Assembly: GCA_041747855.1 (NCBI GenBank) | Contig: JBGTEJ010000048.1 | Coordinates: forward strand, 19,018-83,017 | Reading direction: 5' to 3' | Origin: Acidimicrobiia bacterium | GTDB lineage: Bacteria > Actinomycetota > Acidimicrobiia > Spongiisociales > ZC4RG35 | DNA length: 64,000 nt | Part shown: positions 557 to 45,670 of the stretch, one piece after another | How positions within the stretch are numbered: position 1 is the stretch's first letter | Layout of the letters: each line of letters begins with the position of its first letter | Position numbers and translations under genes: made by a program | Notes under the pieces: model-generated | The model's input: the letters and a program-made list of their open reading frames with translations, nothing else | Told to the model about the DNA's origin: nothing | Databases searched by the model: none

Positions 557-1507
557 TTGGGAAGAGCCATCAAGGCTAAGGAGATGCGGGCTGATCGCAG
601 CGTCGGCGCCACCGACACGGTCGGTCTATATCTCGACGAGGTCTCCGACCATGAACTTCTCACGGCCGAGGACGAGGTTCGTCTCGCCCGAGCGATGGAA
701 AAAGGCAAACGAGCCAAGCTCATACTCGAGTCGGGTGATTACCCCCCGGACGACCGGATCACACTCATCAGGGCCGCAACGGAGGGGGACGAGGCCAAGA
801 TGGTCTTCATCCGCTCCAATCTCCGTCTGGTGATCTCGATCGCCAAGCGCTACACGGGCAAAGGACTCGACCTCCTCGATCTGATCCAGGAGGGAAACCT
901 CGGCCTGATCAGGGCGGTCGAAAAGTTCGATTGGCGCAAAGGGTTCAAGTTCTCTACATACGCCACTTGGTGGATCCGTCAGGCGATCGCCAGGGGGCTG
1001 GGTAACAACAGTCGGACGATTCGGCTCCCTGTCCACATGATCGATGTGGTCCGGACTGTTTCCGAGACCCGCCAGAGCCTCCAAGACCTCTATCACCGGT
1101 CACCCACTCTCGAAGAGATCGCGGAGGTCTCGGGTCTGGACGTGGAGCGTGTACTGGCAGCCATCGAAGCGCCAGGCGAGACAATCTCGCTGGATCGGCC
1201 GGTGGGCGAGGACGGGGATGCTTCGTTGCAGGATTTCGTCCATGACGAGACCGCGGTCGACCCCGAGTTCCGGGCAGCAATGGCGTGGCGTCGGGATCGA
1301 TTGGTCCGCGCCTTGAGCCATCTCGACCCGGAGGAGCAGAAGGTGTTGTGGCTCCGCTTCGGCTTGGACGGTGACGAACCCTGGACGCTCTCAGACGTGG
1401 CCAAAGTGATCAAAACCACAAGGGAGCGGGTACGGCAGATCGAGGCCAGGGGTCTGTCCAAGCTGAGACATCCGTCGAGCGATATCGACCTGTCCGGTCT
1501 TCTCTAA
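557..1507 (+). CDS. RNA polymerase sigma factor, sigma-70 family (group 2 / SigB-like; regions 1.2, 2, 3, 4)
   Basis: 316 aa with a TTG start preceded by GAGGAG. Region 2 reads LRLVISIAKRY...DLIQEGNLGLIRAVEKFDWRKGFKFSTYATWWIRQAI, and region 4 reads LDPEEQKVLWLRFGLDG...TLSDVAKVIKTTRERVRQIEARGLSKLR. Confidence 0.85.
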   Translation: MGRAIKAKEMRADRSVGATDTVGLYLDEVSDHELLTAEDEVRLARAMEKGKRAKLILESGDYPPDDRITLIRAATEGDEAKMVFIRSNLRLVISIAKRYTGKGLDLLDLIQEGNLGLIRAVEKFDWRKGFKFSTYATWWIRQAIARGLGNNSRTIRLPVHMIDVVRTVSETRQSLQDLYHRSPTLEEIAEVSGLDVERVLAAIEAPGETISLDRPVGEDGDASLQDFVHDETAVDPEFRAAMAWRRDRLVRALSHLDPEEQKVLWLRFGLDGDEPWTLSDVAKVIKTTRERVRQIEARGLSKLRHPSSDIDLSGLL

Positions 1508-2233
1508 CCAGCCCTCACAAACCTCAAGAAGAGTGAGCGGTCACCACGCCAGGCACGTGTCAGGGACATCTCGACAGGTGGCGTCGTACCGACACCCAGT
1601 GCCATACCGGGGCCGTCTCCTCCCACAAGCATTGGTGAGACAGTCCAGTTGACCTCGTCCACGGCCTCGGCGGCCAACAGGTGACCGTTCAAAGTGGGGC
1701 CACCTTCACAAAGGATCACACCGGCGCCGGCAAGGTGGGCGATGATCCCTGCGCCATCGAGCTCAGGCAGGACTTCCACCGTTGCGACCTCTTCCAACTG
1801 CCTGATTCTGGCCGGATCGCCCTGACTCCCGGTGAGAATGGCCGGACGGTGATCGGGATCTGAGAAGACCCGCGAGCTCGGGTCGAGGTCCAATGAACCA
1901 GACACTATGACCAGTCTGGGGGATGGCTCGAGGCCACGGCCCCGTCTGACCGAGCGTCGTTCCTCATCGAGTGTGACCGGCCGGTAGTTCTCGTTTCGGA
2001 CCGTTCCAGCACCCACCAGAATCACATCGGGGACAGTCCGAAGAGCATGGAACAATCGACGGTCGTCATCGTCACTGAGGGCCGTGGAACCCCCCTCTAC
2101 CGTGACAGCCCCATCTATCGAGGTGACCATGTTGAGCATGACCCAAGGGCGTTCGGAAGTTGGGCGATACTCGGACAGCACACTGTCGATCGGATCGTCC
2201 ACAGGAACCCCGGTGGCAAGTTCGTGGATCACA
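1504..2233 (-). CDS. RibD C-terminal domain / dihydrofolate-reductase-like pyrimidine reductase family protein
   Basis: The MLNMVTSIDGAVTVEGGSTALSDDDDRRLFHALRTVPDVILVGAGTV motif is typical of the RibD_C family. The track ORF (to 2364) overlaps the upstream GNAT gene, so the start is more likely the GTG at 2233, with alternatives GTG ~2180 or ATG 2139. Confidence 0.65.
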
Positions 2234-2242
2234 CCCAGAAAG

Positions 2243-3271
2243 TTAACGAACTGATAGCGCTGATCGGACAGGGGCGATATCTCCCTGCCAGGCGTTGAGC
2301 CACAGGACGGGTTTGAAACCCATCTCGTCGTTGATCCCCAGCATGGCCTGGTTGGAGCCGGCATTGCCGGTATAGATTCGAGTCACCTCAGGATGACCCT
2401 CGAGGATCTTCTTCAACATCGCCGCCTTGAGCCACCTCCCGAGACCCTTGTCACGATGCGCCGGGTCTACGGCAGTGTCCCGCTGGAGGGCAAGATCCGG
2501 TCGCAGCTCCTGCACACCCACATCCGTGTATCCGACGAAGTCCCCGGTGGGGACGTGGACGGCCACATAGGCGCGCACCAGCTCCCTCCGCCTCATCATC
2601 ATCTCCTCCATGGCCCGCCATTTGGCCGGTGTCATGATCATGTCGGCCAGGTCGAGATCCTCTCTCGGGGCGGTGTTCATGACGTTGTTGACCGCACACC
2701 ACCGTTCGATGTGGTCTTCTGGTATCGGGGTCTCCAGGGAGATGAGTCGATAGTCGGTTGCTCGTTCACCGGCACGCTCGATCCACTGCTCCATCAACCC
2801 CCAGTCGATGTCTCGCATCCAGAGTCTGCTCCGACGCTCGACGAAGACATGTTTGAGACCGAGTCGTTCCAGTGTTGAGTTGGCTGGGGTTCCAGTCGGA
2901 CAGTCCATGATCACCTTGGTGCATCCGTGCCCTTCGAGGGATTCGAGCATCTCACCCAGCATCTGACTGCCGACTCCCTGTCCCCGATGTTCCGGGGTCA
3001 CACCTATCCATAAGAAGCTGTTGTCGGGATCATCCTGTGGCCACCTCAGGGCGTATCCCGCTCCAACGACACGACCATCGTCCTCGGCCAACCAGTGGTG
3101 GACGGGTCTCTCTGGAGGATGTTGGGAGCGGAGTCTGATCGCCCTTGCCTCGAAAGTCGGCGGCGCTTCGTCGGGGATCTCGGTCGTCTCGATCAAGGTG
3201 TAGAGGTGGTGTATCGCCAGTAGGGCTTCGTTCTCGATGCTCCCGCCTTCCCACGGTCTCACCTCCACCAT
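2243..3271 (-). CDS. Tandem-GNAT-domain N-acetyltransferase (MshD-like two-domain architecture)
   Basis: 342 aa with two acetyltransferase cores, VTPEHRGQGVGSQML and VDPAHRDKGLGRWLKAAM. Its ATG lies directly against the stop of the upstream paralog. Confidence 0.75.
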   Translation of the reverse strand: MVEVRPWEGGSIENEALLAIHHLYTLIETTEIPDEAPPTFEARAIRLRSQHPPERPVHHWLAEDDGRVVGAGYALRWPQDDPDNSFLWIGVTPEHRGQGVGSQMLGEMLESLEGHGCTKVIMDCPTGTPANSTLERLGLKHVFVERRSRLWMRDIDWGLMEQWIERAGERATDYRLISLETPIPEDHIERWCAVNNVMNTAPREDLDLADMIMTPAKWRAMEEMMMRRRELVRAYVAVHVPTGDFVGYTDVGVQELRPDLALQRDTAVDPAHRDKGLGRWLKAAMLKKILEGHPEVTRIYTGNAGSNQAMLGINDEMGFKPVLWLNAWQGDIAPVRSALSVR

Positions 3272-4297
3272 TCAGACGCCCCAGTTGTCCCGGACAGTCG
3301 CAAGTTCACCCTGCCAGATGACCTCACGGCTGATCGGCCTGAATCCCATAGCCAGGTTGATGTCGAGCATGGCGGCGTTGGTGGTCGAGTTGTCGGTATC
3401 GATCCTGACCATCTTCGGATACTGCCTGCCGAGACGCTCGATCATGGCGGCCTTCATCCAACGACCCAATCCGAGACCGCGGTGGTTCGGATGGACCACC
3501 GTCTCCCACTGCCAGCCCTGGAGCGGCTCCAGGAGATCGGCGGCGACCGACGTCGAACCGGCGTACTCCCCTGTCGGTCGATGCACCGCGACGATGGTGT
3601 TGATCTCGAACCCCGCCTCTTCGTTCTTCTTCTCCACGTCGCGCCACATCTCCGGAGTCATGACCTCGTCTTCGGTCTCGAGCTCCTCTTTGGGGGCGGT
3701 GTTCATCTGGAACAGGATGTCGCAGTATTTGATCAGGGCCTCATCACTCAGAGGTGGCCTCAGATCGAGCAGGTAGTAATCGGATGCCCGCTCAGAGGCC
3801 CTGTCGATCCAAGTCGCCACCAGGCCGAGATCCAGGTCGGCGAGGACAAGACGACTCCGCTGATCGTGGTAGGCCTCGGCCAGTCCGAGTCTCTCGAGAA
3901 AAGGATCGAAGGCACCGCCCTCCAACACAGAAGTGTGGAGCTTGGTGCGCTCATCCGACTCGAGCCAATCAAAGACCGGTCCCGCCAAGGCCCTGGCATG
4001 GCCATTTCCTCGGTGAGGTGCCGAGACGTGGATCCGGATGAATCCGGTATCGAGGTTGTCCGCCATGCTCACGTAGGCGACGGCGACAGCCTCGATCGTC
4101 CCTCCTCTGCGGAGTGTCCATCGGGGAACCTCCTCGAAATTGTTGACCTTCCGCCAATCGGCAACCGTTCGGGCGAGGCTCGGAGGAGGGTCGTCGGGCA
4201 GCGCCTCGGCAAAGATCTCGTGGTAGTACAGCCACAACTCCTCCAGCAAGGAGTCCGCTGCTACACGTGTGTCGACCAAGTCGATCTTCAGGGTCAT
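3272..4297 (-). CDS. Tandem-GNAT-domain N-acetyltransferase, paralog of 2243..3271
   Basis: 341 aa, collinear with the neighbour: VSAPHRGNGHARAL / VHPNHRGLGLGRWMKAAM and shared motifs such as (F/V)(Q)MNTAP(K/R)E(E/D)L. Confidence 0.75.
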   Translation of the reverse strand: MTLKIDLVDTRVAADSLLEELWLYYHEIFAEALPDDPPPSLARTVADWRKVNNFEEVPRWTLRRGGTIEAVAVAYVSMADNLDTGFIRIHVSAPHRGNGHARALAGPVFDWLESDERTKLHTSVLEGGAFDPFLERLGLAEAYHDQRSRLVLADLDLGLVATWIDRASERASDYYLLDLRPPLSDEALIKYCDILFQMNTAPKEELETEDEVMTPEMWRDVEKKNEEAGFEINTIVAVHRPTGEYAGSTSVAADLLEPLQGWQWETVVHPNHRGLGLGRWMKAAMIERLGRQYPKMVRIDTDNSTTNAAMLDINLAMGFRPISREVIWQGELATVRDNWGV

Positions 4298-5493: not shown

Positions 5494-6317
5494 CAATTCT
5501 TGGCTTTTCCTGGTTGACACCCGAGCCTGCCCAGGCGCAGGGGTCCGTGGTCTACATCGCGTGTTGGACCGCGCTCGAAATGGACCCCGTCCTTGGTCAT
5601 CAAGTGCAAGTCACGCGATGCCGTCTGGCCGGTGGGGAGATCGTCGAGTACCGACGGGAGACCGATATCCCTCTCGTCCTCAACCCGAATCTTGGTGTGG
5701 ACAACGACGGTGTTTGCTGGTTCCTCACCTCGATGTCGACCCCGTACGTCATCGTCGACCAGGCGGCCAACGGGGAAGCATCCATCGCCTTCGACCCTCC
5801 CACAGGTGGCAACTCTTCATTGGTCCCTCTCGGGTACTTTCGCCGCTGCACGTCCGAACCCAGGGTGGGTGTCTGGGAGGAGGGTCTGATCTGGGAGTAC
5901 CTCGCCAGCTATCTTCACCCCCCACCCACACCCGAAATGAGTCCTCCCACCGGTTTCGGGGTTACGGGTGTGGCGGCTTTCGCCGGTGTGGAAGTCCCGG
6001 GGACCCACCGGGCCGTCATAGGCGATCCGATCAACCAGTTGGAACTGGAGGTCAGGGTCATTGCTGTGGTCATCGACTGGGGTGACTACAGCGTCGTCAC
6101 ATATCCGCCTAGCCAAGGGGTCCTGGCCGGCTTTCCGGATGGTGGAGCCTGGCATCTGTACACCGCAAAGAACGGGACGACCACCCTGTCAGTCTCCTAC
6201 GTCTGGGACGTCCGCTGGCGCAGTGGCGGCGCTCCATGGCAGACCCTGAACGTCCCACCGACCACTACGACTCTCGTCTATCCCGTGTCCGAGATCATCT
6301 CAGTGCTGTCTCGCTAG
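5460..6317 (+). CDS. Hypothetical secreted protein (signal peptide ...PAQAQG)
   Basis: 285 aa with a Sec-type signal peptide, MGIRLRTFAFVAILGFSWLTPEPAQA. It overlaps the previous gene by 34 nt. The start is uncertain and no recognisable domain was found. Confidence 0.45.
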   Translation: MGIRLRTFAFVAILGFSWLTPEPAQAQGSVVYIACWTALEMDPVLGHQVQVTRCRLAGGEIVEYRRETDIPLVLNPNLGVDNDGVCWFLTSMSTPYVIVDQAANGEASIAFDPPTGGNSSLVPLGYFRRCTSEPRVGVWEEGLIWEYLASYLHPPPTPEMSPPTGFGVTGVAAFAGVEVPGTHRAVIGDPINQLELEVRVIAVVIDWGDYSVVTYPPSQGVLAGFPDGGAWHLYTAKNGTTTLSVSYVWDVRWRSGGAPWQTLNVPPTTTTLVYPVSEIISVLSR

Positions 6318-6391
6318 GGCCCACATCCGACTTGACCCCAGCGAGATGAGGGTTATGGTTTCGCCTTCGGAGTCAGAACCAACCCAAATTC

Positions 6392-7126
6392 ATGCATAGC
6401 AACAGCGTCTACGCGATGGTCGCTGCCATCGCTCTAACCGCAGGTCTCGTCCTGGTGATGGGTGGGTCCCCAACGACGCGTCAAAGTGACACCCACGCCA
6501 TCGAGCTCGTTGCAACCTCCACGACTGCCACCGCAACCGACTCGACAGTCGCGGCCAAGACTGTGGAACCATCCCCAGAACCCACCGCCGAAGCGGACAT
6601 CAACGAGATCCTCGGAGCGGGGGTCGGGCAAATGGTCGAGGAGACCACCACGACTACCACACTTCCGGCACCGACCACGACCAAGCCGTCGGCAACAAGT
6701 CCGACAACCACGAAGCCCAAGTCGACTACCACCACCCGGCCCACACCGACCACAACCGCTCTTCCGGGAGAGTTCCGGTCGGACTTCGAAGCCGAGTTCC
6801 TCGCCCACATCAATTCATTCAGGGCTGCCAGCGGCCTACCTGCCTTGAGCCGCGACGGATCACTGAACAGCAGGGCGCGGGACTGGTCGAAGCGAATGGC
6901 CGACAACGGCAAGCTCTCCCACTCCAACATCGCCAACCTCCTACCACCCTGGTCGGCTGCCGGTGAGAATGTCGGACGGGGTGGCTCGGTCACCAGTCTC
7001 TTCGATGCCCTGGTCAACAGCCCAGGTCACCGGGCGAACATACTGGGCGACTACACCCACATTGGGATCGGTGTCTGGGCGGCGGGCAATGGCAACCTCT
7101 GGACCACCCACGTCTTCACTCGATAG
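6392..7126 (+). CDS. Secreted CAP/SCP (PR-1-like, YkwD-type) domain protein with N-terminal anchor and Thr/Pro-rich linker
   Basis: The C-terminal region LSRDGSLNSRARDWSKRMADNGKLSHSN...GENVGRGGS...SPGHRANILGDYTHIGIGV matches the CAP-domain signature. The linker is TTTTTTLPAPTTTKPSATSPTTTKPKSTTTTRPTPTTT. Confidence 0.7.
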   Translation: MHSNSVYAMVAAIALTAGLVLVMGGSPTTRQSDTHAIELVATSTTATATDSTVAAKTVEPSPEPTAEADINEILGAGVGQMVEETTTTTTLPAPTTTKPSATSPTTTKPKSTTTTRPTPTTTALPGEFRSDFEAEFLAHINSFRAASGLPALSRDGSLNSRARDWSKRMADNGKLSHSNIANLLPPWSAAGENVGRGGSVTSLFDALVNSPGHRANILGDYTHIGIGVWAAGNGNLWTTHVFTR

Positions 7127-7197
7127 GCGATCCCTGGTCAAGTTTCCCGGCGCCCCCCGACGCCCAACGGCGTGACCCTTCGACAGCGGATAGCCGG

Positions 7198-8562
7198 CTA
7201 GGCAACGACCACGGTCTTGGCGTTGAGGAACTCCTTCATACCGAGGTCGGAGAGTTCACGTCCGAAGCCACTCGTCTTGATGCCCCCAAACGGCAACCGG
7301 GGATCGGAAGCAACCAGGGCATTGACGAAACATGATCCTGCCTGAAGTTGATCCCTGGCCACTCGCTCACCCAATTCCAGGTCCGAAGTGAAGATCGCGG
7401 CACCGAGTCCGAACTCGGAGTCGTTGGCGATGCGCACCGCATCGTCAACCCCCTTTGCGGCGATCACCGCTGCCACCGGCCCGAATGTCTCCTCGTGGTA
7501 TATCGCCATCCCTTTCTCCACTCCGGCGATCAAGGTCGGCGGGTAGTAGGCCCCCGGTCCATCCGGAATCACACCACCCATGACCAGGCGTCCACCACCC
7601 TCGACCGTGCGGACGACCTGATCGTGGAGCTCGTCACGGAGATCGGCCCGCGCCATGGGCCCGAGAGTCGTGGCCGGATCGAATGGGTCCCCCATGACCG
7701 CCTTCCCCAAACCCGTCGCCAAAAGGTTGGTGAACTCGTCTACCACCGACTCGTCGACTATGAAACGTTTCGCTGAGATGCATGACTGCCCACCGTTGAT
7801 CAACCGCGATGCCGCGCAAGCGCTCGCGGCCGCTTCGAGATCGGCGTCGGCCAAGACCAAATAGGGATCGGACCCCCCGAGTTCGAGGACCGTCTTCTTG
7901 AGTAGGCTCCCGGCCTTGGTGGCCACGGCCCGGCCAGCGGGATCTGAGCCGGTGAGTGTTGCGGCGACGACATGGGAACTTTCGAGGATCTCATCGACTC
8001 GACGAGCCGGGACCACCAGAGTCCTGAAAAGACCGTCGGGGAAGCCAGCCTCGACCACCAAACGGTCGATGGCCAGAGCCGAACCGGTCACGTTCGAGGC
8101 ATGCTTGAGAAGTCCCCCGTTGCCAGCCATGAGGGCGGGGGCTAGGAAACGAAAGACCTGCCAGAACGGGAAGTTCCACGGCATCACCGCCAGGACTACC
8201 CCTAGTGGGCGATAGGCGACATAGCTCTTGGTGCGGTCGGCGTCGATTGGTTCGTCGGCCAAGATCCGCTCGGCATGCTCGGCGTAGTGCCGACACACCC
8301 ATGCGCACTTTTCGACTTCGGATCGTCCTTGGGCGAGAGGCTTACCCATCTCTTGTGCCATGAGAACCGCGATCTCATCCCTCTCGAGGTCGAGCAGTTC
8401 GGCGAGTCGGTTCATCGGCTCGGCCCGCTCAGCGAATGTGGTCCGCTCCCACTCGCGCTGAAGACGTGCTGCCGTTTCGATGTGAGTGGCGACGTCCTCC
8501 GGTGAAGTCTCCTCGTACTCGGCCAGAAGTCGGCCATCTGCAGGGCTTACTGAGGCGATCAT
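7198..8562 (-). CDS. NAD(P)-dependent aldehyde dehydrogenase (succinate-semialdehyde dehydrogenase-like)
   Basis: 454 aa with ALDH motifs: VLELGGSDP, catalytic Cys in GQSCISAKR, and EETFGPV. Confidence 0.9.
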   Translation of the reverse strand: MIASVSPADGRLLAEYEETSPEDVATHIETAARLQREWERTTFAERAEPMNRLAELLDLERDEIAVLMAQEMGKPLAQGRSEVEKCAWVCRHYAEHAERILADEPIDADRTKSYVAYRPLGVVLAVMPWNFPFWQVFRFLAPALMAGNGGLLKHASNVTGSALAIDRLVVEAGFPDGLFRTLVVPARRVDEILESSHVVAATLTGSDPAGRAVATKAGSLLKKTVLELGGSDPYLVLADADLEAAASACAASRLINGGQSCISAKRFIVDESVVDEFTNLLATGLGKAVMGDPFDPATTLGPMARADLRDELHDQVVRTVEGGGRLVMGGVIPDGPGAYYPPTLIAGVEKGMAIYHEETFGPVAAVIAAKGVDDAVRIANDSEFGLGAAIFTSDLELGERVARDQLQAGSCFVNALVASDPRLPFGGIKTSGFGRELSDLGMKEFLNAKTVVVA

Positions 8563-8604
8563 CTAGTCATTATGGCCGACTCGGAGACACCTGCCTCCGG
8601 ACGG

Positions 8605-8994
8605 TCAGCCGGGCGCTACGGAATTCTGATCGATCCGGATCGGAATCCAAAGGTCCTCGCCGGTCAGTTCCTGATTGGAAGCCATCGACCACGCGTGCAG
8701 ATCGCACGCAAACCCATCCGGGACCATGAACTGTGCCTGGTCCCCGCAGGCACTGCAGGTTGTACGGCGTCCGGTGGCAGCCACGCCGGTACGAGCGGGA
8801 TTGTCGGGAAAAATGCGAACGGTATCTTCGACGAAACGCACCGATACCAGGCCACAGGTCTCGCATACCTGTCGTTCCAGACCCGCATTGGTCGTGCTCA
8901 TGACCGCGTCATGTGGACACCGGCCCATATTGGGACGGCGGAATTTTGACCACTCAGCCAACGGATCCTCCCTGATATAACCGCTCGGTAACAC
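8605..8994 (-). CDS. Hypothetical Cys-rich (putative zinc-ribbon) protein
   Basis: 129-aa ORF with a CPHD...CETCG...CSACG...CDLH arrangement. No SD was found and the AT-ending codon usage is atypical for this genome. Low confidence. Confidence 0.25.
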   Translation of the reverse strand: MLPSGYIREDPLAEWSKFRRPNMGRCPHDAVMSTTNAGLERQVCETCGLVSVRFVEDTVRIFPDNPARTGVAATGRRTTCSACGDQAQFMVPDGFACDLHAWSMASNQELTGEDLWIPIRIDQNSVAPG

Positions 8995-16940: not shown

Positions 16941-19055
16941 TCAACTGTTGAGGATGACAACCGGACAGGGAGCTGTCCTGATGATCTGTTCCACCCTCGG
17001 GCCGAGGTAGAGCCGGCGGCTGCCGGCCCGCACGCTGGTGCCCATGACCATGAGGTCGGCGTTGGTCGCCTGGACCGCTTCAAGAATGCCCGACTCGACA
17101 TCGATCGCCTCGAGCACGAAGGTCTCGATCTGCTGCCCGAGCTGAGCTGCCACGGTTTCGAGCTCCTCGGTGACGTCACCACCCAGCGCGTAACGGCTGG
17201 TCGGCACCCGGGTGGACACCACGACGTGGACCCCGGTGACCACAGAATCGGAACCGGCCACCGCAAGGGCGAGATCAGCAGCGTTGCGCGAGCTCGTGCT
17301 CCCGCTTATCGGCACCAGGATCCGGTTTGGTTTCCATCCGGAGGGAACGTCATCGCCCCTGATCACGAGTGTCGGACAGCGGGACAGTTTGATCAGGTCG
17401 TCGATGACCCGCCCGAATATCTCCTGGTCACTGTCGGCCAGGGCGGGAGTGCCTATGACCAGTAAGTCGTAGTCGGCTTCAGCCTCCCGGAGGATGTGGT
17501 CGACCGGCTCGTCACCTGAGATCGCTCTCGTCGTAGTGGATCCCTTGTCGAAGAGGCGACTCACTTCGTCCAAGTACCTATTGGCCATCGACTTCTGTCC
17601 GTTCGAGTAGACGGCAATGAGGCTCGTGGATATATCGCCACTCCGGGCTAGTCGTGCAACGAGTGCGGCCTGAATGGTCTGGGTCCCGGCAAGATGTTCT
17701 CTGGGTCGGACGGGGACGAGGATCCGTCTGATGCCCGCGGCGAAGCTCCTGGCCAGGATCTCTTCTTTGACGAGCCGTTGTTTCTCCTCCTCCCCTGGCT
17801 CCACGCGGGCCAGGAAGTACTTGATGGCAAACGGTGCCATGAGGGATGTGACCACAGCCATGACCACGATGATCGAGAACATCTCCTGACTGAGGATGCC
17901 GAGGGAGAGGCCGATCGTGGCGACGATGATCTCGACCGCCCCGCGTGCGTTCAGCCCGGCCCCGTAAGCAAGTGACGACCAGTGGTCTTGCTTGGAGAGG
18001 TAGCGGGCGCCCAGGTAAGCACCAACTACCTTGCCGAAAGTGGCAACTGCGATCACCGCAATCGTGATCAGCAGTAGGTCTGGTTCGAGGATCGCCCGAA
18101 TGTTGACTTTGAGTCCGGCAACAGCAAAGAAAATTGGGGCGAACACAGCGAGAGTGATGCTCTCTAGCTTCCGAACCGTGTCCGATGGCATCCTCGGCAG
18201 ACGTCCAAAAAGGATCCCGATGGCGAAGGCGCCAATGACCGGCTCGAGGTTCATCGCCTGGCTGAAGCCACCCCACGCGAATGCAAGAACGACGACCAGT
18301 GTGAGTACGAAGTCAGGCCCGCGAAACCGATCCTGGACGAGCGTGAGGCCCTTGTCCACCAGGAAGCGGCCAACGCTGGCGGTGGCGAGAACGAACAGGG
18401 CGACCATCCCCACGGTCTGAACCACGGTCCCGGTACTCAGAGCTTCGGCGCCAGCGAGGGCGGTAACCAGACCCAGGAGAGTCCATCCGGTGATGTCATC
18501 GATCATTCCAGCGGCGAGAACGGTCTGTCCGAACTCTCTTCGCATAAGGTCAAGGTCCATCAGGATTTTTGCCAACACCGGAATGGCGGAAATCGACAGA
18601 GCAGTTGCAAGGAAGAGCGCGAAAATTGTCCGTTGCGCGGGGTCGGCGAGAACCAACTCGGGGAGCATGAATCCCAGTACCAAGCCTGACGCGAAAGGAA
18701 CGATCAGTCCACCGACGGCGATGCCGGCGGCGACACCTATCCGACGGCGGATCAGGCCGAGGTCGGTCTCCAGGCCGGTGACAACTAGAAGCAGCATTAC
18801 ACCAACCAGGGCCACGACTTCGAGCATGTAGCCCTGGACGGCTGTCTGTGGGACGATCCAGCGTCCGATGACGGGCACCAAGCCGGAGAGCAGCGACGGC
18901 CCGAGAATCACTCCAGCGAGGATCTCACCGACGACAGTTGGCTGTCTGAACCGGGTGGCAATCCCACCGAAGAGTCGTGCCGCGAAAAGCAGGGCGGCGA
19001 TCTGCACAACCAGCTGTAGCACTTCGTTGTGCGAGGCGGCGCTAAACGGCTCCAC
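16941..19055 (-). CDS. Cation:proton antiporter (CPA2/Kef-like) fused to two C-terminal universal stress protein (USP) domains
   Basis: 704 aa. The N-terminal ~400 aa is a polytopic Na_H_Exchanger-type domain. The C-terminus has two USP modules (ILVPVRPREHLAG...LVIG and ILVPISGSTSSRNA...LMVMGT). GTG start with GGGAGGAG directly upstream. Confidence 0.85.
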   Translation of the reverse strand: MEPFSAASHNEVLQLVVQIAALLFAARLFGGIATRFRQPTVVGEILAGVILGPSLLSGLVPVIGRWIVPQTAVQGYMLEVVALVGVMLLLVVTGLETDLGLIRRRIGVAAGIAVGGLIVPFASGLVLGFMLPELVLADPAQRTIFALFLATALSISAIPVLAKILMDLDLMRREFGQTVLAAGMIDDITGWTLLGLVTALAGAEALSTGTVVQTVGMVALFVLATASVGRFLVDKGLTLVQDRFRGPDFVLTLVVVLAFAWGGFSQAMNLEPVIGAFAIGILFGRLPRMPSDTVRKLESITLAVFAPIFFAVAGLKVNIRAILEPDLLLITIAVIAVATFGKVVGAYLGARYLSKQDHWSSLAYGAGLNARGAVEIIVATIGLSLGILSQEMFSIIVVMAVVTSLMAPFAIKYFLARVEPGEEEKQRLVKEEILARSFAAGIRRILVPVRPREHLAGTQTIQAALVARLARSGDISTSLIAVYSNGQKSMANRYLDEVSRLFDKGSTTTRAISGDEPVDHILREAEADYDLLVIGTPALADSDQEIFGRVIDDLIKLSRCPTLVIRGDDVPSGWKPNRILVPISGSTSSRNAADLALAVAGSDSVVTGVHVVVSTRVPTSRYALGGDVTEELETVAAQLGQQIETFVLEAIDVESGILEAVQATNADLMVMGTSVRAGSRRLYLGPRVEQIIRTAPCPVVILNS

Positions 19056-19065
19056 TGCTCTCCTC

Positions 19066-19185
19066 CCTCTGTGCCTACGGGGTTAGCTGCCGGGCTCGGG
19101 CTGGAAGGTGCCCTACCCGGCTTTCGCCGGGATTCGCCCCGTTGTCGGGTCCCCCGTCCCGATCACTCGGGTTCGGCGTCACGGA
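19066..19185 (-). promoter_or_regulatory. c-di-AMP riboswitch (ydaO-yuaA / kimA class) in the 5' leader of the CPA-USP antiporter gene
   Basis: The minus-strand RNA reads 5'-GACGCCGAACCCGAGUGAUCGGGACGGGGGACCCGACAACGGGGCGAAUCCCGGCGAAAGCCGGGUAGGGCACCUUCCAGCCCGAGCCCGGCAGCUAACCCCGUAGGCACAGAGGGAGGAG-3'. Both pseudo-symmetric halves (GCCGAAcCC...GGGACGGGGGAcCC and GGGGcGAAUCC-hairpin-UAGGGCACC) and the 3' segment CCCG.GCCCGGCAGCUAACCCCGuAGGCA fit the ydaO architecture as recalled from the T. tengcongensis crystal construct. The SD lies immediately 3' of the aptamer. Confidence 0.6.
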
Positions 19186-19325
19186 ATCGTACCCGTTCGT
19201 GAGCAAACATCAGACGCCAACACGCTACGACCCTTCCGCCGGGCCTAGCCTCCCTGCCAGAGCGCGGTGCCACACAGGCGGCCGCCTCGTGTTCGTCAGC
19301 GACACCGATGCTGTAGGGTTATCAG

Positions 19326-19511
19326 GTGTCAACAGAACCGATCCAGCCGGAAACTGACGAAGAGCGATCCAAAAGGCACGAGCGGGAGCGGATCGAGGCC
19401 AACGAGCGCTACGAAAGCGAACGCAAAGAGGCCGCGAGCAAGCATGACCGGGAACGTCTCGAAGCCCGGGATGTCCGCGAACAGGATCGTCGCAAAGACG
19501 ACAACACTTAG
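19326..19511 (+). CDS. Hypothetical small highly charged (E/R/K-rich) protein, 61 aa
   Basis: GTG-initiated ORF encoding ...ERSKRHERERIEANERYESERKEAASKHDRERLEARDV.... No SD was found and it may be non-coding. Confidence 0.2.
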   Translation: MSTEPIQPETDEERSKRHERERIEANERYESERKEAASKHDRERLEARDVREQDRRKDDNT

Positions 19512-41948: not shown

Positions 41949-44900
41949 CTAAACCGGATCGGTTCGCCCCTGGCGGGGCGCCCTCGCCACGAAGTACTTG
42001 GCCTGGGGGTGATGACAGATGAGTGCCGATGTGGTCTGTTCGGGTTGGTACTGATAGCCAGTTTCCTCCCCGACCGTGATCCCGATTCGTTCTGCTCCAA
42101 GAATACGTGCCACTGTCTCGTTGTCCTCCAAGTCGGGACAGGCTGGATAGCCCCAGGAGTACCTGCCACCGCGATACTTCTGTCGGAACAAGCCTGTCAG
42201 ATTAGGACCATCCTCGGAGACGAAGCCCCACTCAGTCCTGATCCGGTGATGCCAGTACTCGGCCAGGGCTTCGGCCATCTCCACTCCCAATCCGTGGAGG
42301 AGCAGGTAATCCTGATAGCGGTCGGAGTCGAAGAGCTCTTTAGTTCGCTCCGAAACCACGCCTCCCATCGTGACGATATGAAAAGCCGCATAATCCAGTT
42401 CCCCTGAGTCGGCTGGCCGGAAGAAGTCGGCTATGCAGTAGTAAGGGTCTTCCTGCTGCCGGGGAAAGCTCAGTGTGGCGAGTTGAGAGGTGCGGGTCTC
42501 GTCTTCCCAGATGATCAGGTCGTCACCGTCGCCGTTCGCAGGGAAGTAGCCGTAAACAAGTTGGGGAACGAGCAGCTCGGCCCTCCTGGCGTCGGCGAGC
42601 TGTTCTCGAAGCCGATGCCCGAGTCGTTCTTTGAAGTCACGATCGTTCTCGCCGGGTTCCGGGCGGAACTGCCATTGGTTTCGGAACAGCGCCGTGCGAT
42701 TGATGAAAGGAACGATGTCATCGATGGCAATGCCCTTGACCACCCGGGAACCTATGAACGGCGGTTTGAAGACATGGTTGTCGGACACCACCGACGGCGC
42801 CCTGTCCGGAACCGAGCCGCCTCCGGATTCCGGGCGGTGACGCACCCGTGGAGCTTCGGGGCTCGGGGCCGGCTCGCCGGACACGATCCTGGCCATGGCG
42901 TCCAACCCGGCGAACGCATCTTTCCCGTAGTACAAAGGCCCCTGGTAGCGGGACCGAAGATCAGACTCGACATAACTCCGGGTCAGAGCAGCCCCACCAA
43001 GGAGCACCGGCACCTTCCCCAGACCTCTGCGTTCCAGTTCGGCGAGGTTGTCCCTCATGATGAGGGTGCTCTTGACCAGTAGCCCACTCATGCCAATCGC
43101 ATCTGCCTGGCTCTCCTCGTATGCCTGGATCATCTCATTGATCCCAACCTTGATGCCGAGATTGCGAACCTCATATCCGTTGTTGCTCAGGATGATGTCG
43201 ACGAGGTTTTTCCCTATGTCGTGGACATCGCCGGACACCGTGGCGAGGACGACCCGTCCCCGGCTTCCGGTGTCGGCCTTCTCCATCTTCGGCTCGAGAT
43301 GGGCCACGGCCTTCTTCATTGTCTCCGCAGATTTGAGCACGAAGGGCAACTGCATCTCCCCGGAGGCGAATAGTTCTCCCACCACTTTCATTCCGGCGAG
43401 AAGATGGACATTGATGATGTCCAGCGGGGGCTGCCCATCGGAGAGGGCGATCTCGAGGTCTTCGACGATGTTCCTCTGATCCCCGTCGACGATCCGACGG
43501 GCGAGCCGTTCACCCACATCCAGACCCTCGTAGCGGTCGACGGTGTCATCCTCGTCGCTGATATCGGCGAACAGATCGATGAGCCGCTCCAACGGGTCGT
43601 ATCCCTCCGACCGCCGGTCGTAGATCAGGTCCAGGCATACCTGGCGATGCTCCGGGTCGACCTTTGCCAGAGATTCGATCTTTCCGGCATGGACGATGGC
43701 GGCGTCCAAGCCAGCTTCAACCGCCTCGTGGAGAAAGACGGAGTTCAAAACACGTCGGGACGACGGGTTGAGACCGAAGGAGATGTTGGAGACACCCAAG
43801 ACGGTTCGCGACCCGGGCAACTCCTTCTTGATCCGACGGATTGCCTCCAACGTCTCAATGGCATCGCCCCGCAAGTCGTTGTCCCCGGTCGACAGTGGAA
43901 AGGTAAGGGTGTCAAAGATGAGATCGGAGGTGGAAAGTCCGTAGCGGTTCACCGCCAAGTCATTGATCCGGTGAGCGATGCGGAGCTTCCAGTCGACCGT
44001 CCGGGCCTGACCCTCCTCGTCGATCAAGAGACAAATCACCGCAGCGCCGTACTTCCGGGCGAGCTTGAAGACCCTGTCGAGACGAGAACCTTCACCCTCC
44101 CCGTCCTCGAGGTTGGCACTATTGAGGACGCACCGACCCCCCAACCGTTGCAGACCCGCTTCCATCACTTCGGGTTCGGTCGAGTCGAGGACCACGGGGA
44201 CAGCAACATCGGTCGCAAAGGCCATCGCCAGCCGCGACATGTCAGCCACACCGTCACGAGCGACATAGTCGACACAGAGATCGACCATGTGGGCCCCCTC
44301 CTGGATCTGGCTCTGGCCGATTCCGACACACCGTTCCAGGTTTCCGTCGAGAAGGGCGTCACGAAAGGCCTTGGAACCGTTGGTGTTGGCGCGCTCACCG
44401 ATCATGAGAAACGACGTGTCCTGATCGAATGAGACCTGGGAGTAGATGGAGGCGGCTGCGGCGACCGGTTGGGGGGAGCGGGTCTTGACGGTCAGTGGTC
44501 GCACCTTCTCGATCACAGCGGCCAGATGCTCGGGTGTGGTCCCACAACATCCTCCGATCACACCGACACCGAGTTCGGTGACAAATTGGGCCAGGTGATC
44601 GGCGAGTTCGCTCGGGGACAGGTCGTAGGCCATCTCCCCATCGATCACCTTCGGGAGACCGGCATTGGGGATTGCAGAGATCGGCACCGATGAATGTCGG
44701 GTGAGATGCCGCAATGGCTCCCACATCTCCAACGGGCCGGTGGCGCAATTCAGTCCGATCACATCAGGTCTCATGGCGGCGAGGGCGGTGAGGGCCGCTC
44801 CCATCTCGGTACCTGGAAGCATCCTCCCGGTCTGTTCGATCGTCACCTGCACCTGGATCGGAAGGTCCTGGTTCAGATCTGTCATCGCTTGACGGGCCCC

Positions 44901-45419
44901 TATGATCGCCGCCTTGGCGCCGAGCAGATCGAACTGGGTTTCGATGATGAGGAGGTCGGCACCACCGTCGATGAGCCCCTGGCTCTGGACCCGGTAGGCG
45001 TCAGAAAGGTCGGAGAAGGCGACCTGGCCAAGTGTGATGAACTTGGTGCCGGGCCCGATCGAGCCGGCCACGAATCTCTCTCGTCCATCGTCGGCGATAT
45101 ACCGGTCAACCACGCCACGGGCGATGGAGGCCGAAGCTGCCGAGATCTCATAGGCGCGGTCGGCGATGTCGTACTCCCCCAGCGGTATTGCAAAGGCACC
45201 GAAGCTGTTGGTCTCGACCACATCCACCCCGACATCGAGGAAGGAAGCATGAAGGTCATGGATGACATCGGGTCGAGTCACACTGAGGATGTCGGTGCAA
45301 CCCTCGAACTGAGGACCGCCGTAATCGTCCAATGACAGATTCAGTCGTTGGAGGTTGGTCCCGGTCGCACCATCGAACACGACGACGCCCTTGGAAACGG
45401 CATCGAGATAGCCGCTCAT
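41949..45419 (-). CDS. metH: Cobalamin-dependent methionine synthase
   Basis: 1156 aa with all modules: Hcy-binding, pterin-binding, the B12-binding DxHxxG (GDVHDIGKN) and the AdoMet activation domain. Confidence 0.95.
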   Translation of the reverse strand: MSGYLDAVSKGVVVFDGATGTNLQRLNLSLDDYGGPQFEGCTDILSVTRPDVIHDLHASFLDVGVDVVETNSFGAFAIPLGEYDIADRAYEISAASASIARGVVDRYIADDGRERFVAGSIGPGTKFITLGQVAFSDLSDAYRVQSQGLIDGGADLLIIETQFDLLGAKAAIIGARQAMTDLNQDLPIQVQVTIEQTGRMLPGTEMGAALTALAAMRPDVIGLNCATGPLEMWEPLRHLTRHSSVPISAIPNAGLPKVIDGEMAYDLSPSELADHLAQFVTELGVGVIGGCCGTTPEHLAAVIEKVRPLTVKTRSPQPVAAAASIYSQVSFDQDTSFLMIGERANTNGSKAFRDALLDGNLERCVGIGQSQIQEGAHMVDLCVDYVARDGVADMSRLAMAFATDVAVPVVLDSTEPEVMEAGLQRLGGRCVLNSANLEDGEGEGSRLDRVFKLARKYGAAVICLLIDEEGQARTVDWKLRIAHRINDLAVNRYGLSTSDLIFDTLTFPLSTGDNDLRGDAIETLEAIRRIKKELPGSRTVLGVSNISFGLNPSSRRVLNSVFLHEAVEAGLDAAIVHAGKIESLAKVDPEHRQVCLDLIYDRRSEGYDPLERLIDLFADISDEDDTVDRYEGLDVGERLARRIVDGDQRNIVEDLEIALSDGQPPLDIINVHLLAGMKVVGELFASGEMQLPFVLKSAETMKKAVAHLEPKMEKADTGSRGRVVLATVSGDVHDIGKNLVDIILSNNGYEVRNLGIKVGINEMIQAYEESQADAIGMSGLLVKSTLIMRDNLAELERRGLGKVPVLLGGAALTRSYVESDLRSRYQGPLYYGKDAFAGLDAMARIVSGEPAPSPEAPRVRHRPESGGGSVPDRAPSVVSDNHVFKPPFIGSRVVKGIAIDDIVPFINRTALFRNQWQFRPEPGENDRDFKERLGHRLREQLADARRAELLVPQLVYGYFPANGDGDDLIIWEDETRTSQLATLSFPRQQEDPYYCIADFFRPADSGELDYAAFHIVTMGGVVSERTKELFDSDRYQDYLLLHGLGVEMAEALAEYWHHRIRTEWGFVSEDGPNLTGLFRQKYRGGRYSWGYPACPDLEDNETVARILGAERIGITVGEETGYQYQPEQTTSALICHHPQAKYFVARAPRQGRTDPV

Positions 45420-45670
45420 GATGGTGCTCGGTTAGCGCCGGATGACCCGGTCATGGTTCTGCTCCTTTGTCTCACATGAAACGCTTGAGAGAGAACCGTG
45501 AGCCTGAGCCCAAGGTAACTCATCGTCCCAGGCATTGGCACCGTGCTCGGCCCTGTGGCTCTGTCGGTTGCCGCGGCGTCAAAGGGCCTGATCCCTCAGC
45601 CGCTCTAGATGAGCGTTTCTGCTCCACAGGATATCGGCGCGACCCGCCTATTGACAAGACCCAACCCGCA

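Follow-up and report, generated by a model that had tools for sequence, protein, structure and literature searches.

A c-di-AMP riboswitch of the ydaO class precedes the gene of a NapA-like CPA2 cation:proton antiporter with two USP domains in an Acidimicrobiia bacterium. We consider it likely that this riboswitch is functional and that it acts as a translational OFF switch without a platform, through its own pseudoknot. The riboswitch itself can be found by any routine Rfam annotation, and current understanding is not overturned by it. The RNA class is well known; what makes this case notable is the unusual target gene and a geometry in which the Shine-Dalgarno (SD) sequence seems to be included in the pseudoknot. 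All coordinates, unless a related locus is named, refer to the window, that is, the whole 64-kb stretch of DNA that was analysed (assembly GCA_041747855.1, contig JBGTEJ010000048.1).

The aptamer, its leader and the regulated gene

A cmscan search of the whole window against Rfam 15 matched RF00379 (c-di-AMP, ydaO/yuaA leader) at 19188..19058 on the minus strand with 89.9 bits and an E-value of 9.7e-20, well above the gathering score (GA) of 38 bits. The initial annotation had proposed a ydaO-like segment at 19066-19185 on the same strand, which lies inside this match, and the RF00379 check that it suggested therefore bears it out. The match spans all 134 positions of the model (1-134), to which the purine-rich 3' tail belongs. 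The helices of the pseudo-two-fold fold, namely P1, the long-range P3 and the two three-way halves, are all present. Read on the minus strand, the half-sites are GAACCC-loop-GGGACGGGGGACCC and GAAUCCCGG-CGAAAG-CCGGGUAGGGCACC, and the 3' strand is CCCGAGCCCGGCAGCUAACCCCGUAGGCA. This strand is followed by GGGAGGAG and then by the GTG start at 19055; these elements stand where the initial annotation had placed them. At 53 of the 56 upper-case (highly conserved) positions of the RF00379 consensus the window is identical. Of the three positions that differ, two (GGGGCGAAU and CCCGAGCCCG) have the same form in the c-di-AMP-bound 4QLM construct, and the third falls as a gap within a variable loop. 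The proposed likeness to a crystal construct also holds, as 4QLM (PMC5393176) is nearly identical over CCCGAGCCCG(U/G)CAGCUAACC(U/C)CG. Our MAFFT pairwise alignment with this construct is mis-registered in the middle, because P2 is truncated, and is informative in the 3' half only. The MFE fold of the whole 296-nt intergenic region (z = -0.52) did not recover the aptamer and is uninformative because of the GC-rich context; the Rfam structure was used instead. Judged by its sequence, this segment is a real and intact c-di-AMP riboswitch whose match is far beyond chance, and we infer from the same features that the RNA binds the ligand.

As in other members of the RF00379 class, the aptamer lies in the 5' leader, on the same strand as the transporter gene. 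The 270-nt leader of the initial annotation has the right length but is really the divergent intergenic region 19056..19325. A promoter scan of the leader region found no sigma-70-like promoter, and a comparison of leaders found no conservation among relatives of the sequence 5' of P1. A terminator scan found no intrinsic terminator from the end of the aptamer to nt 250 of the CDS; the sole terminator-like site (19436..19422) is upstream of the leader. The N-terminus that the GTG gives, VEPFSAASH, lines up with the beginning of all homologues (consensus xETFSAASH). In the nested MFE structure a UUCC in the 5' flank (about 19186..19183, minus strand), a possible extension of P1, pairs with part of the SD. 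We rejected this extension as a conserved element as the flank varies among relatives, and the pairing with the SD is probably fortuitous because it is not conserved in them. It could modify the ligand-free state of the window RNA.

Two other features of the window may be recorded here. The divergent 61-aa ORF at 19326..19511 (plus strand) would encode a peptide with a very high share of charged residues (E/R/K/D-rich). This ORF matches no Pfam family and its only homologue was found at a relative's locus of 73% identity (L002); on these grounds it was rejected as a part of the riboswitch system. A SAM-I riboswitch (RF00162, 65.9 bits against a GA of 44.4) is found at 45517..45615 on the minus strand, immediately before the gene of a 1156-aa B12-dependent methionine synthase with the MetH domain set (41949..45419, minus strand), which is an ordinary arrangement.

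Table 1. Features of the riboswitch locus in window coordinates
Feature	Position	Strand	Basis or remark
c-di-AMP riboswitch aptamer including 3' pseudoknot tail	19058..19188	-	cmscan RF00379, conserved positions, 43-leader alignment
Hairpin loop CCUUCC, predicted 5' strand of the pseudoknot (anti-SD)	19103..19108	-	complementarity, conservation
GGGAGG, predicted 3' strand of the pseudoknot and SD	19062..19067	-	6 nt upstream of GTG
GTG start codon of the antiporter gene	19053..19055	-	no start further upstream is possible in the ORF
Upstream part of the divergent intergenic region	19189..19325	-	promoter and TSS presumed here
CPA2 cation:proton antiporter with two USP domains, 704 aa	16941..19055	-	Pfam
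Transmembrane Na_H_Exchanger domain, aa 27-415	17811..18977	-	PF00999, E 3.6e-50
Tandem USP domains, about aa 443-570 and 578-702	16950..17729	-	Pfam Usp x2, E 6.3e-29

The regulated gene had been described as a CPA2-like antiporter with two USP domains, and a Na_H_Exchanger domain and two Usp stretches were indeed identified (Table 1). The match to the NCBIfam CPA2 model TIGR00932 (141.8 bits) is below the cutoff of 238.3. Among solved transporters, sequence matches were limited to three Thermus thermophilus NapA entries (4BWZ, 5BZ2 and 5BZ3, E about 1e-36), and no Kef-type (KefC) chain was matched even at E 10. In the alignment with NapA (E 2e-35) the IDD of the window protein (D186, D187) aligns with the NapA IDD, and K342 (GKV) with the lysine of ILGKV. 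The window protein has the DD motif of TM5 and the lysine of TM10 that are known from electrogenic CPA2 members, and NapA, which has both, is the closest structural relative of its membrane domain. NapA differs in having no C-terminal USP domains, whereas the window protein has two; a tandem USP structure (PDB 3loq) aligns to aa 458-701. The USP domain of KdpD binds c-di-AMP through an SXS-X20-FTAXY motif (PMC4686210). A motif scan found this motif neither in the window protein nor in 16 family members. The canonical ATP motif G-2x-G-9x-G(S/T) of the UspFG/MJ0577 type has no match in either USP domain of the 17 family members, and USP2 carries a conserved GTSVRAGxxRLxLGPRVE in place of it. The initial annotation had suggested that c-di-AMP acts on both the RNA and, via the USP domains, the protein. 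As the ATP and c-di-AMP motifs are absent in 17 of 17 members, such dual sensing is unsupported by the protein sequences.

The loop-tail pseudoknot and the proposed switch

The hairpin loop CCUUCC is complementary to the tail GGGAGG over 6 bp, one of them a G.U pair, with an energy of -7.4 to -10 kcal/mol. For comparison, the duplex energy with a generic CCUCC-type anti-SD oligonucleotide, which is not the 16S sequence of this organism, is -11.9. The loop is wholly unpaired (p=0) in the nested-structure ensemble, and its core, CUUCC, is invariant in 43 related leaders. In the crystallised 4QLM construct a loop-tail pseudoknot is formed by CUCCUUC and GAAGGAG, and the tail is engaged in the ligand-bound form (PMC5393176). 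The loop of this construct corresponds to the CCUUCC loop of the window, and the loop-tail pseudoknot is common to both.

Among related loci the loop and tail are found as CCUUCC/GGAAGG (16 loci), CUUCC/GGAAG (13 loci) and CUUCCU/AGGAAG (3 loci). The leaders of two paralogues (L035 and L055) have CUUUCC/GGAAAG, that is, a matched U/A insertion on both strands. The pseudoknot of individual loci is 5-6 bp long in nearly all cases. In the leader alignment it is 87% paired column-wise with zero double substitutions, because the loop is invariant. Since the loop is invariant in the main family, the covariation support for the pseudoknot comes from G.U changes and the one matched insertion, which is confined to two paralogue leaders that are themselves related. 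Thirteen relatives, those with the 5-bp form, have 15-17 nt between the pseudoknot strand and the start codon, and a second GAGG nearer the start; direct capture of the SD is therefore not universal in the family.

In the window GGGAGG is separated from the GTG by a spacer of 6 nt (AGAGCA). We conclude that the 3' strand of the predicted pseudoknot and the SD are one element here. There would then be no separate expression platform, as the pseudoknot strand would double as the SD. The binding of two c-di-AMP molecules would lock the pseudo-two-fold fold and stabilise the CCUUCC/GGGAGG pseudoknot, the SD would be kept from the 30S subunit and translation would fall, resulting in an OFF switch. 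At low c-di-AMP the tail would be free and the antiporter would be made. Both the OFF direction and translation as the regulated step are what we infer from this geometry. Of the 'translational or termination control' of the initial annotation, the translational part stands, with the SD in the pseudoknot and 6-nt spacing, and the part on termination falls as no terminator was found. Translational control alone fits because of the 6-nt SD spacer, the lack of a terminator and the identity of the SD with the 3' strand of the pseudoknot.

All characterised c-di-AMP riboswitches are OFF switches (PMC9960051, PMC5575661). The Bacillus subtilis kimA and ktrA leaders and the Thermoanaerobacter aptamer (4QLM/4QLN) have the same pseudo-two-fold fold, conserved nucleotides and loop-tail pseudoknot as the window RNA. 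The window riboswitch differs from the kimA/ktrA type in that it has no terminator platform, its tail coincides with the SD and its target is a CPA2-USP protein rather than a K+ importer. In the preQ1-II/III, SAM-II and SAM-V riboswitches a ligand-stabilised pseudoknot engages the SD directly and the aptamer and platform overlap. The principle that we propose is the same, while the folds and ligands are unrelated. A parallel among c-di-AMP riboswitches is that of Corynebacterium glutamicum nlpC, which is also actinobacterial and has no terminator; its reporter is repressed while the transcript level is unchanged, and an RBS pseudoknot has been proposed (PMC9960051). It differs in having a cell-wall peptidase as target, and the proposed anti-RBS CTCC is in an extra stem-loop (PMC9960051), whereas the predicted anti-SD of the window is the conserved aptamer loop itself.

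Pairing of aptamer and gene among relatives

The antiporter belongs to a large, length-conserved protein family of about 704 aa, whose sources, where named, are Acidimicrobiia MAGs. We took 80 loci of relatives (48-75% identity) from species-representative genomes, 77 of which could be assessed. These were screened with nhmmer and then with a covariance model built from 43 leaders with the Rfam structure. With the covariance model, 43 loci were seen to have a full aptamer that ends at the start codon and that looks intact in 42 of them. An intact aptamer is thus present in about 42 of the 77 assessable homologue loci, all labelled as Acidimicrobiia or related MAGs. Together with the RF00379 match, this upholds the assignment of a ydaO-class riboswitch to the CPA2-USP fusion gene. 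An Rfam scan of 15 loci gave matches at GA in six (L002, L013, L027, L035, L054 and L055), that is, at four homologue and two paralogue loci. Of the cells in the 43-leader alignment 89.7% are paired. Both partners have changed in 10 pairs; this number was attained in 0 of 500 shuffles and collapses when the partners are slid by 1-3 columns. The paired cells and the compensatory changes indicate that the RNA is under selection for structure in the context of the antiporter gene. Neither the covariance model nor Rfam identified an aptamer in loci from other phyla (at most 56% identity).

Two of the loci have a Na_H_Exchanger+Usp paralogue that adjoins the 704-aa homologue, each with its own aptamer. 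In L035 the aptamer is at 8753..8903 and the paralogue ORF at 6307..8712 (both minus strand; 801 aa as listed), and in L055 they are at 1074..1249 and 1334..3910 (both plus strand; 858 aa as listed). The contig prefixes CAZCRP01, DATHWB01 and DATKEC01 have two aptamer-bearing loci each. As far as contig sequences tell, several genomes hold two riboswitch-controlled antiporter copies. Seven loci that have the Acidimicrobiia type of gene and leader at about 70% identity (L004, L006, L007, L008, L012, L013 and L049) are labelled 'uncultured Acidobacteriota bacterium'. This label on Acidimicrobiia-type loci may be a labelling or binning inconsistency.

The pairing has not been kept everywhere. No aptamer is present (L001 3369..3640) in the closest syntenic orthologue, L001, which has 75% identity and shares its rhomboid and S9 peptidase neighbours with the window. 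In its place an ORF ends about 110 nt upstream, which implies a recent loss or replacement of the leader. The synteny check found the rhomboid and S9 peptidase neighbours in L001 only, and there is therefore no conserved operon. Four further loci (L021, L022, L026 and L046) are below the Rfam GA and their sequences are visibly degenerate or truncated. In L022 just the 5' half of the aptamer is left (about 3934..4021), fused to the start region. In L021 (3895..4006), L026 (3850..4004) and L046 (3853..4006) there are substitutions in the CAGCUAAC core. The absence of the riboswitch from L001 and the four decayed aptamers show that riboswitch control is dispensable.

These losses raise the possibility that the window aptamer is itself an evolutionary relic that no longer regulates anything, one that we regard as extremely unlikely. 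Decay has clearly occurred in relatives, but the window copy scores 89.9 bits with all helices intact and 53 of 56 conserved positions retained, and the compensatory changes across the 43 leaders are a mark of purifying selection on structure. It is scarcely conceivable that the aptamer is a variant with an altered ligand, for example pApA, ATP or another dinucleotide. Nothing specific points to such a ligand apart from the three departures from the Rfam consensus, and of these two are shared with a construct crystallised with c-di-AMP and the third is the variable-loop gap. An ON switch, in which the SD would be sequestered in the ligand-free RNA, for example by the 5' UUCC, and freed on binding, is very unlikely. 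For a K+ exporter such a logic would make physiological sense, as the exporters CpaA and KhtT are activated by c-di-AMP (PMC6488665), and in the nested MFE structure the UUCC does form pairs with part of the SD. However, relatives do not conserve the 5' flank, the crystal form with bound ligand has its tail in the pseudoknot (PMC5393176) and no ON member of the class has been described (PMC9960051, PMC5575661).

We also weighed whether the same riboswitch acts mainly on the transcript, by non-canonical attenuation, Rho-dependent termination or mRNA decay in the early CDS, and judge this unlikely though not without precedent. The Firmicute members of the class act by termination (PMC9960051, PMC5575661). 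The Streptomyces coelicolor rpfA riboswitch, which is likewise actinobacterial and targets a cell-wall lytic enzyme, has no canonical terminator and yet a transcript-level effect is reported for it (summarised in PMC9960051). The distance between pseudoknot strand and start codon in the 13 relatives with the 5-bp form would also suit this reading. Against it are the terminator scan, which showed no intrinsic site between aptamer and gene or in the initial 250 nt of coding sequence, and the coincidence, in the window, of the pseudoknot strand with an SD at ideal spacing. As a fall in translation could in turn lead to secondary Rho termination, control of translation, which we prefer, and effects on the transcript are not exclusive.

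Targets of the riboswitch and physiological meaning

How usual an antiporter target is can be seen from an arbitrary sample of metagenome contigs with an exact match to the aptamer core CCCGAGCCCGNCAGCUAACC, which comprises 80 loci among the matches listed. The covariance model found the aptamer in 80 of 80. Among the 67 ORFs downstream of these aptamers, antiporter-like proteins numbered zero in blastp at E <= 1e-5. The functions of these targets, read from cluster representatives and again among the matches listed, comprise a cluster of 15 KimA-like amino-acid-permease-fold proteins, Kup (6), NlpC/P60 (4), trehalose-phosphate synthase/phosphatase (3), and standalone USP, P-type ATPases and radical SAM (2 each). 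An M23 peptidase, a lytic transglycosylase, PG-binding, SulP and solute-binding proteins and others occur singly. This agrees with the known regulon of c-di-AMP riboswitches, which comprises K+ importers, osmoprotection and the cell wall (PMC7266159, PMC9960051); the actinobacterial targets described are mostly cell-wall genes (PMC9960051). The statement that these riboswitches typically gate K+/cation transporters is therefore right for K+ importers but does not extend to antiporters (0 of 67 downstream ORFs). As no CPA antiporter is found among the metagenome targets sampled, the CPA2-USP target is a lineage-specific addition. A full-text search of the papers in the library turned up no c-di-AMP riboswitch described upstream of a CPA antiporter or from Acidimicrobiia, though the supplements of Nelson 2013, Block 2010, Ren & Patel, Gao & Serganov and Jones & Ferre-D'Amare may list one.

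Some individual metagenome loci have other arrangements. In L082 and L086 standalone USP genes (about 240 aa) come directly after c-di-AMP aptamers, which suggests that USP recurs in the regulon independently of the antiporter fusion. In L135 (733..4026, minus strand) and L140 the aptamers precede P-type cation ATPases of about 1100 aa with an N-terminal PTS_EIIA_2, an unusual fusion.

The predicted sign of control bears on what the antiporter may do. Negative control, together with a regulon that is needed at low c-di-AMP, makes a Na+(Li+)/H+ extruder likelier than a K+ exporter. Its role would more likely be to extrude Na+(Li+) against H+ under salt or osmotic stress, in the manner of NapA. 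Six-frame motif scanning of the 64-kb window for a diadenylate cyclase gave no convincing DGA / RHR signature. In Staphylococcus aureus CpaA and in KhtT of B. subtilis and B. anthracis, c-di-AMP binds RCK_C and activates K+ export (PMC6488665). These systems, like that of the window, link c-di-AMP to a CPA2-type antiporter. In the window the link would be at the RNA level and is predicted to be negative, and the protein has USP rather than RCK domains, without known c-di-AMP motifs. A negative switch would therefore follow a logic opposite to the protein-level activation of K+/H+ antiporters by c-di-AMP.

We tentatively speculate that Acidimicrobiia have recruited the riboswitch to a family of NapA-like antiporter-USP proteins, often with several controlled paralogues per genome, as a platform-less translational switch in which the pseudoknot serves as anti-SD and whose logic is opposite to that at the protein level. 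If true, c-di-AMP physiology would have an undescribed arm, serving for Na+ extrusion or pH/K+ retention when c-di-AMP is low, in a class of actinobacteria with only cell-wall targets described. The predicted OFF logic, by which the antiporter would be needed at low c-di-AMP, is a testable prediction. The window may also provide a clean natural example of the poorly documented translational mode of c-di-AMP riboswitches, because the tail of the pseudoknot, as defined by crystallography, is at the same time an SD with optimal spacing. The c-di-AMP regulon would gain a cation:proton antiporter-USP fusion, and RNA-level control of ion homeostasis by c-di-AMP would be extended to the Acidimicrobiia, an actinobacterial class dominated by uncultured members.
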